Source: Octopus vulgaris (lineage: Eukaryota). From it: 64,000 bases of DNA. The stretch spans positions 65,410,001 to 65,474,000 of the forward strand of contig OX597821.1 of assembly GCA_951406725.2 (NCBI GenBank). Reading direction: 5' to 3'. Each line of letters starts with the position of its first letter. Positions within the stretch are counted from its first letter, which is position 1. Both the position numbers and the translations under genes were made by a program. Below are positions 15,154 through 15,932 of the stretch, piece after piece. Below the pieces are notes generated by a model, which was given only the letters and a program-made list of their open reading frames with translations, was not told where the DNA came from and ran no database searches.

Positions 15154-15932
15154 AAAATATTAAGGAATGACCCTGAGAAGGTCGTTCGACTCACTTGAAA
15201 AGAGCAGCTAAAACTCAAAACCGCAAAAATAGTAGTAATTCTGAAACTAGTAATTCTAGTTTCAGAATTACTACTATTTTTGCGGTTTTGAGTTTTAGCT
15301 GCTCTTTTCAAGTGAGTCGAACGACCTTCTCAGGGTCAGTCCTTAATATTTTGTTGAATGTATCATATAGTCTGTGACTATTTCTATTTTCTCACTTGAC
15401 CGCTGGTGGCAGAAAATTTTTCTTGAATTTTTTGTTACCCTTATATTGATTGATTAATGAATTTTTGACTAATTCTGAAATTTGTATCAGCAGCTTATAT
15501 TTGCTGCGGAGTAGATGGCGCGATTACGGTGAATTCGAAAATTTACGATATATAGACCCGAGGCTTGGATGGTGTAGCCTCGTGTATATGTATCTGCCTC
15601 CTATTTTGGTGACTTTGCTGACGAGACAAGCCAAGCGTAAACGGATTTAATTAAATTTAATTAAATTTGATTGCGTGAAGATGTTGAAACCTTGCAGGGT
15701 ACAAAGTTTGAAGGGAATAAATGTTTTTTATTTTCCTCTAGTTTCAGAATTACTACTATTTTTGCGGTTTTGAGTTTTAGCTGCTCTTTTCAAGTGAGTC
15801 GAACGACCTTCTCAGGGTCATTCCTTAATATTTTGTTGAATGTATCATATAGTTTGTGACTATTTCTATTTTCTCACTTGACCGCTGGTGGCAGAAAACT
15901 TTTCTTGAATTTTTTGTTACCCTTATATTGAT
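15154..15932 (+). mobile_element. Non-coding hammerhead-bearing element (482-bp unit, ~196-bp terminal direct repeat, 97-bp 5' inverted arm) in (TA)n
   Basis: 15154-15250 is the reverse complement of 15256-15352 (1 mismatch); 15255-15450 is repeated at 15737-15932. Confidence 0.85.
15611..15708 (+). ncRNA. Type-I hammerhead ribozyme with long stem-II extension
   Basis: GACTTTG-CTGACGA-GACA[~53-nt hairpin]TGTT-GAAA-CCT(TGCA)GGG-TA-CAAAGTT; canonical core; predicted cleavage after A15701. Confidence 0.85.

Follow-up and report, generated by a model that had tools for sequence, protein, structure and literature searches.

A 482-bp non-coding unit of Octopus vulgaris, found within the 64,000-nucleotide stretch of DNA analysed here (the window), carries a type I hammerhead with a long helix II arm and is laid out like an insertion of a Penelope-like element (PLE). 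The PLE-type layout indicates that the element probably borrows PLE enzymes, and since the unit holds no RT/GIY-YIG ORF it can at most be a non-autonomous passenger, not an autonomous PLE. The best reading of the locus, which we hold with good confidence, is such a non-autonomous PLE passenger, that is, an animal non-LTR retrozyme.

Architecture of the insertion

The insertion is bounded by a left (TA)n-rich target tract (14866–15149) and a right one (15931–16013) that overlaps the element's last bases. No target-site duplication (TSD) is readable, because the (TA)n on both sides hides any. Between the tracts lie, in order, a 97-bp inverted arm, a 5-nt loop (15251–15255), a 196-bp partial copy and the full 482-bp unit. 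At the left junction, 4 nt (15150–15153) form no clean continuation of the unit and look as if the neighbouring A-rich bases had been copied with slippage. The full unit (15451–15932, forward strand) has a GC content of 35%, is strongly self-paired (z −4.4, with none of 100 shuffles as good) and, when tripled, contains no stop-free stretch longer than 66 codons. An earlier reading of the sequence alone (the sequence-only reading) had described about 1.4 head-to-tail units of 482 bp, a near-perfect 97-bp palindrome with one mismatch, (TA)n on both sides and no coding capacity, all of which are borne out.

The head-to-tail arrangement is seen in a 196-nt direct repeat (15255–15450 vs 15737–15932), whose spacing of 482 makes 1.41 units. 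Both copies lie on the forward strand and are pseudo-LTR-like (pLTR-like). The upstream one is partial and does not include the hammerhead, which leaves a single hammerhead at the locus, while the downstream one forms the 3′ end of the insertion. They differ at three positions (15339/15821, 15372/15854 and 15417/15899). The direct repeat begins 36 nt past the predicted cut site (15737 − 15701), in agreement with the earlier estimate of about 36 nt after the equivalent upstream cleavage site. The inverted arm (15154–15250, reverse strand) is a 5′-truncated copy placed head-to-head with the direct copy. It is the reverse complement of 15256–15352 with one mismatch (15167/15339), and it matches the downstream copy (15738–15834) perfectly. 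The arm end and the direct-copy end coincide within 1 base. The arm stops 98 nt before the element's 3′ end, leaving the inverted and direct 3′ ends offset by 98 nt.

The inversion centre holds four extra bases (15251–15254) that, together with 3 nt on each side, are an exact repeat of 15233–15242. The probability of such a templated junction is 0.010 given the flanks, and it arose in 76 of 200,000 draws with a random site and insert. Just 3′ of the cut site, a weak AU/GU-rich hairpin (15713–15738), which competes with distal helix I, has its foot at the truncation point. We considered an RT stall at the hairpin 15713–15735, just upstream of the truncation point, and give it little weight, as its lower pairs are weak (pairing probability 0.24–0.51).

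We find that the 97-bp palindrome is part of a PLE footprint, not a separate oddity. According to Craig et al. (PMC8557442), PLEs insert with a bias for microsatellites, as 5′-truncated partial tandems that often bear, at the 5′ end, a truncated copy in inverted orientation; in the supplement to that paper, (TA)n is the target given for the Naiad and Hydra families of octopus and for the majority of Hydra-clade families. Arkhipova et al. (PMC3846280) report a pair of direct pLTRs accompanied by an inverted, shorter one, with palindromes at the junction, and describe pLTRs as sufficient for mobilising an unrelated sequence in trans. The present locus shows a partial tandem with pLTRs, an adjacent inverted 5′-truncated copy with a palindromic junction, and a microsatellite target; at this one locus the two 3′ ends are offset by 98 nt, as against 30–40 bp for the PLE tail. 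An RT-encoding PLE locus, L033, has the same layout of a partial tandem and a head-to-head palindrome, the latter with a 10-nt loop, and inverted copies are also present at L031 and L042 (9 of 21 PLE loci self-compared).

A type I hammerhead with a long helix II arm

The hammerhead (15611–15708, forward strand) is built from CUGACGA (15618–15624), GAAA (15686–15689) and a GUA triplet with the cut predicted after A15701. The conserved type I core is present throughout: C3 U4 G5 A6 N7 G8 A9, G12 A13 A14, A15.1–U16.1 and H17. Helix I (15612–15617/15702–15707) has six Watson–Crick pairs and a terminal G15611·U15708 at position 1.7, which together make up the 7-bp stem I described earlier. Helix II (15625–15628/15682–15685) and helix III have 4 bp each, the latter closed by a 4-nt loop, and the hammerhead is open at helix I. 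Helix III with its loop (15689–15700, forward strand) is a 12-nt self-complementary segment that permits a double-hammerhead dimer. The sequence-only reading, which had listed all core bases, a stem III and a stem-II insertion of about 53 nt, thus holds in all its numbers. With the same descriptor, the motif occurred in none of 5000 dinucleotide shuffles of the unit and in none of 30 shuffled windows.

Helix II opens with G15625·U15685 at 10.1–11.1, not the usual G–C. We note that G10.1–C11.1 is highly conserved, not invariant, and that natural U·U variants have been reported at this pair (PMC3088659; PMC7229834). Above helix II stands a 53-nt extension (15629–15681, forward strand) composed of a purine-rich internal loop, a 6-bp stem and an AT-rich 12-bp palindromic hairpin, and the helix II region folds at z −4.2, with none of 200 shuffles as good. 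In solved natural hammerheads, position 1.7 contacts the last A of loop 2 (PMC11875169). Here, U15708 occupies position 1.7 and A15681 lies where that A would be expected; loop 2 takes the form of an internal loop, and a probable distal helix I is present (5′ strand 15596–15603, forward, with its partner at 15710–15717). The inner architecture looks canonical, with a 6-bp helix I, a 4-bp helix II and loop 2 turned into an internal loop under the long hairpin.

No Rfam hammerhead model matched the unit at the gathering threshold or at E ≤ 10, and the Rfam matches that were obtained are generic miRNA-hairpin and chance ones. This miss is probably due to the long helix II arm.

Variation across the repeat family

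Contigs from 4 of 24 listed runs (X2, X4, X10 and X11; three organism labels) were aligned on the permuted unit 15300–15781. In all four the unit is a multicopy, divergent family. Matching contigs number 31, 66, 104 and 154 in the four runs, cover all bins and are in many cases only 80–95% alike. Of the 24 listed runs, 20 contain some of the unit and 10 at least half of its words, across four organism labels and nine studies; no RNA run is among these listed holders. The unit junction (15450/15451) is bridged by contigs with 11–13 differences (X10 record 3, X11 record 9), and one contig of X4, which may be an RNA run, joins 15454 to (TA)n. Depth, which is no measure of copy number, drops after 15452 in all four runs, as might happen if copies ended there, and also dips at 15317–15350. 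Among the joints listed for contigs of the four runs, none is strand-switching. An exact 24-nt pattern from the unit had no match in metagenome contigs; a 17-nt pattern gave 20 stretches in viral contigs, none extending beyond 28 nt, and these are taken as chance.

At every family-variable site the two direct copies carry the same allele, the minority ones at 15435 and 15738 among them, which is what a single template haplotype would give. The window copy has about six private or near-private alleles relative to the family. Together with three differences in 196 nt, these indicate a fairly young copy in which drift has begun (the 15716 allele), consistent with its earlier description as a probably young insertion.

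The core and inner helices (45 positions) contain none of the 39 substitution sites listed for the four runs (hypergeometric 0.018); in a sliding control, 11 of 385 windows of the same shape are also empty. Of 16 indels, 12 are listed; one of these borders helix II, which it would extend. Five changes in the helix II arm fall at paired sites, where three keep pairing and two break it, both at helix ends; two further changes are at unpaired positions. In X11 only, C>T at 15600/15601 and G>A at 15713/15714 occur at similar depth; combined with the other X11 alleles, all unphased, these changes would bring distal helix I to 8 bp of perfect pairing. The C>T changes could pair as U·G even on their own. 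The window copy has the minority allele at 15716, which weakens its distal helix I. Loose ends of different runs, again unphased, give hints of a subfamily in which two helix I pairs are swapped and the triplet is GUC, and of a variant whose helix III would be perfectly palindromic. For the unit as a whole, variants cause 8 breaks vs 12.1 expected, a preservation of structure that is not significant (P = 0.09). On balance, we consider it likely that the hammerhead of this family is functional in some form.

Predicted folding and cutting as a dimer

In each of 7 contexts, the monomer hammerhead fold is predicted to lie 3.3–5.9 kcal/mol above the ensemble, owing to a competing helix between 15611–15618 and 15694–15700. 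The duplex of helix III and its loop is predicted at −18.9 kcal/mol. In the folding model, the double hammerhead reaches −59.9 vs −44.4 for two monomer hammerheads, while the two best monomer folds reach −51.0 and the best dimer fold −63.7; an intermolecular duplex through the AT-rich arm is absent from this best dimer fold. These models suggest that cutting is favoured as a dimer through the palindromic helix III, and since they contain no core or tertiary energies they suggest dimer cutting rather than prove it. Animal type I hammerheads are known to cut as dimers that pair through a palindromic helix III (PMC4209133; PMC6765202). In a recent preprint (10.64898/2026.07.22.740005), which derives animal retrozymes, mostly of vertebrates, from PLEs, one of nine tested dimers was cut, the other eight Xenopus retrozyme dimers staying uncut in vitro.

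With one hammerhead at the locus, this copy alone would release neither a unit monomer nor a unit circle, and the window copy is unlikely to be a source of circles. The earlier claim of a retrozyme-like unit with a real hammerhead stands, whereas its ranking as the best candidate in the window for an active ribozyme or retrozyme monomer was too strong, given the single hammerhead and the disfavoured monomer fold.

Comparison with known elements

The unit resembles animal non-LTR retrozymes (Cervera & de la Pena 2020, PMC7229834; Li, Clavereau & Pollet 2026, 10.64898/2026.07.22.740005) in that it is non-coding, low in GC, self-paired and a few hundred bp long, with one type I hammerhead per unit, head-to-tail and multicopy, and in that it coexists with PLEs. 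At 482 bp it exceeds most animal retrozyme repeats (150–450 bp) and falls within the preprint's range of 51–972 bp. It differs from animal retrozymes in the 53-nt extension of helix II and, with one hammerhead at the locus, from the preprint's ‘active’ retrozymes, which have at least two consecutive hammerhead units. The inverted head and (TA)n target seen here are not described for retrozymes in the portions of PMC7229834 and the preprint consulted. In animal non-LTR retrozymes a TSD, when present, is longer than 4 bp.

Similar to endonuclease-bearing PLEs (Pen2a_Av, PMC3846280; Neptune, Hydra and Naiad, PMC8557442), the element has two direct pLTR-like copies, a shorter inverted copy and (TA)n. 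As in PLEs, its hammerhead lies near the 3′ end, and helix III of about 4 bp recalls Hydra-clade hammerheads (PMC8557442). Unlike those PLEs, it has no ORF, no recognised 30–40-nt tail (but a 98-nt offset) and a non-minimal hammerhead, and no sequence link of the unit to a named PLE was found. Chlamys MRC1 (PMC8557442) is likewise ORF-less, with pLTRs and head-to-tail insertions made using PLE enzymes, whereas Chlamys elements are green algal, mostly without canonical hammerheads, and have a 3′ end resembling that of their helper. The closest likeness in the arm is to the spike-moss elements PLE-X1_sMoe and PLE-X1_sTam (File S2, PMC8557442), whose type I hammerheads carry some 30–35 extra nt in the helix II arm and are marked non-canonical. 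These are coding and rDNA-targeting, in contrast to the present unit with its 53-nt arm, AT-rich palindromic end and 4-bp helix II opened by G·U. The annotation of the Octopus vulgaris genome lists 190 Penelope-like families (6.83% of the genome), and the word ‘ribozyme’ does not appear in its main text. Among the mostly open-access papers searched, we found no report of this family or of any cephalopod retrozyme.

Candidate helpers and neighbouring elements

A decayed, 5′-truncated Neptune-type PLE lies 2.5 kb upstream at 10582–12693, in (TA)n, with its RT frame open to 11850. Its best named relatives by RT are in bivalve molluscs (52–67% identity), and a Neptune-type linker is seen in relatives of this RT/GIY-YIG element. 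An internal deletion of about 140 residues (553–691 of homolog P0003 missing) has removed the linker and most of the endonuclease. A minimal hammerhead candidate (12485–12529, core 12490) carries U4C, and its helix II begins with a U·U pair; the 3′ end follows about 170 nt after the cut site, and the last stretch is AC-rich. The unit shows no similarity to the 3′ region of this PLE (score 24; shuffles median 22, 95th percentile 28).

Searches with the neighbouring RT returned 1 locus in metagenomes, none in viral contigs and 21 in genome contigs. Hammerheads were found in 8 of these 21 PLE loci, all with a helix II region of 14–19 nt and none long. A ninth, in L032, is an antisense 81-nt match with weak stems that we take as chance (shuffles gave 0–1 matches). 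L032 itself is a three-unit tandem of 3083 bp. The PLE RT-endonuclease contigs L022–L042 lie inside bacterial MAG records and are probably misbinned host DNA. Against the 21 PLE loci and L001 the unit has no similarity (best E 0.06), and three short motifs of the unit gave no relevant match in the PMC8557442 consensus set. The hammerhead of Hydra-1_Obim was considered as a relative and differs from that of the unit. Octopus Naiad 3′ ends in the PMC8557442 supplement, compared by eye only, share just 4–5 terminal bases, and a Naiad element may still be the helper.

A second, older, ORF-less PLE-type hammerhead element is found at 37579–38221, with a 12-bp TSD (37579, 38210). It has an inverted arm (37588–37765 vs 37981–38159, 90%), a partial direct copy (37765–37862) and a type I hammerhead (core 37952, cut predicted after 37984) with a palindromic helix III and a decayed helix II. 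The inverted arm stops 4 nt before the cut site, on its upstream side, and the two 5′ ends differ by about 110 nt. Neither this element nor the neighbouring PLE has sequence in common with the 482-bp unit. A scan of the window for core, helix I and self-complementary helix III gave exactly three hammerheads (1 match in 40 shuffled windows). The hammerhead that the sequence-only reading had singled out as the best in the window is thus accompanied by two further candidates, with cores at 12490 and 37952.

The window also contains a 184-bp SINE-like unit in three head-to-tail copies (7439–7987, 94% matches) and a decayed fragment of eukaryotic large-subunit rRNA (29035–29178; Rfam RF02543, 65.9 bits) with inverted matches at 29303–30213. 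Opposed pairs of SINE-like repeats by microsatellites form imperfect inverted repeats (75–84%) at 51042–51929 and 55385–56467, and no hammerhead was found in these two.

A proposed insertion cycle and rival explanations

For the PLE passenger, the footprint suggests the following cycle. Tandem or partial-tandem copies would be transcribed, and their hammerheads would cut after A15701, mostly as dimers via helix III. A PLE RT-endonuclease acting in trans would then nick (TA)n and prime cDNA at the unit 3′ end, a priming point 231 nt downstream of the cut site. Synthesis would run through one full unit plus 196 nt, passing an intact hammerhead site on a putatively multimeric or circular template, and would stop 36 nt after the upstream cut site, the 97-nt arm being made at insertion. 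The insert does hold an uncut hammerhead site. A circle and a homogeneous tandem transcript may both explain the 1.4 units, and the data do not separate them. In vitro, the Anolis PLE carries out target-primed synthesis that starts inside a longer RNA and extends both target strands; its hammerhead needs protein and is dispensable for insertion, mutants causing no block.

The inverted arm most likely arose by fold-back self-priming of the new cDNA, a route to which we give somewhat better than an even chance. The templated 4-base centre fits two short rounds of fold-back priming, by RT or host repair. A second cDNA, primed on the other target strand and stopping at the same place, is a serious if less likely alternative, made possible by the extension of both target strands by the Anolis PLE. 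The 5′ ends of the 37.6-kb element, which differ by about 110 nt, show that fold-back would not be the only route to inversions; second priming fits that element better.

The disfavoured monomer fold leaves room for a mobile element whose hammerhead is dead or incidental, silenced by the palindrome in loop II and the G·U pair and merely carried along: stem II extensions with internal loops can inhibit engineered hammerheads (PMC11875169), and hammerhead mutants do not stop PLE insertion in vitro. We nevertheless regard this as possible rather than likely, as no listed substitution in the four runs falls in the core or inner helices, changes in the arm preserve pairing, a relative with unalignable flanks keeps 15604–15672 (X2 record 21), and the U at 1.7 with the A before the helix II 3′ strand fits the known tertiary contact. 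That the 482 bp instead join the 5′ end of a coding element to its 3′ end, as a rare or locus-specific internal-deletion derivative of an autonomous PLE, seems improbable. Single contigs span the unit start to the hammerhead gap-free in three runs (X2 record 19, X10 record 5, X4 record 30), with a depth that in X2 and X10 is about 10-fold or more above that of the shallowest contigs, though depth is a weak measure, and diverged subfamilies keep the same middle (X2 and X10 loose ends at 15538 and 15589; X11 records 12 and 13). Coding-like sequence is in none of the listed loose ends, 60 more loose ends and 342 pieces standing outside that list. On the other hand, an autonomous partial tandem would give the same 3′-to-5′ junction, the neighbouring PLE has a large internal deletion, and two X2 contigs (records 20 and 21) match partly and then run into unlike sequence.

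Perfect palindromes and microsatellites are prone to artefacts, and the fold-back joint is in no contig, as would befit a satellite-like repeat spread at the DNA level with a palindrome made by replication fold-back or by misassembly at (TA)n. This is very improbable in our judgement: the arm is short and bounded by (TA)n and then unique DNA, the centre is templated, the arm's one difference from the neighbouring copy is a family allele, and the layout recurs in RT-encoding PLEs and in the 37.6-kb element with its TSD. Moreover, word-based contigs would not be expected to reveal a perfect hairpin. LINEs have also been named as possible mobilisers of retrozymes (PMC7229834), and the window may contain LINE-like remnants. 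It is nonetheless scarcely plausible that the element is a SINE-like passenger moved by ordinary LINEs and not by PLEs, the unit having no poly(A) or repeat tail of its own and the arm being a head-to-head duplicate of the direct sequence next to it. Twin priming by LINE-1 is not known to yield such a duplication. The partial tandem and the (TA)n target, in turn, are PLE marks (PMC8557442).

Discussion

The sequence-only reading overlooked the PLE insertion layout, the G·U pair at 10.1–11.1, the self-complementary helix III, the single hammerhead at the locus and the Rfam miss. Two groups have proposed that PLEs move animal retrozymes, on the grounds of co-occurrence and pLTR similarity (PMC7229834; preprint 10.64898/2026.07.22.740005). 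Here, PLE insertion marks are found directly on a retrozyme-type unit, and in a mollusc. The templated inversion centre offers a small clue to how the inverted heads of PLEs form, and the long helix II arm means that hammerhead counts from Rfam or from short-spacer descriptors can miss whole families.

A more speculative reading, to which we give only a small chance, is that the locus is the DNA print of a PLE RT that went 1.4 times round a 482-nt retrozyme circle. Its hammerhead would belong to a long-armed class, invisible to Rfam and to the usual short-helix descriptors, that self-pairing silences in the monomer or circle and that becomes active only as a dimer, the AT-rich arm docking a helper protein or a second RNA. 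If true, this would tie retrozyme circles to PLE enzymes at the sequence level and would open a test of how animal retrozyme circles avoid cutting themselves.

In sum, what is new is a long-armed hammerhead missed by Rfam and a retrozyme-type unit with PLE insertion marks; the kind itself is known, and this is a modest variant of it. Current views are not overturned: the finding adds one family and one structural variant to a known kind of element.
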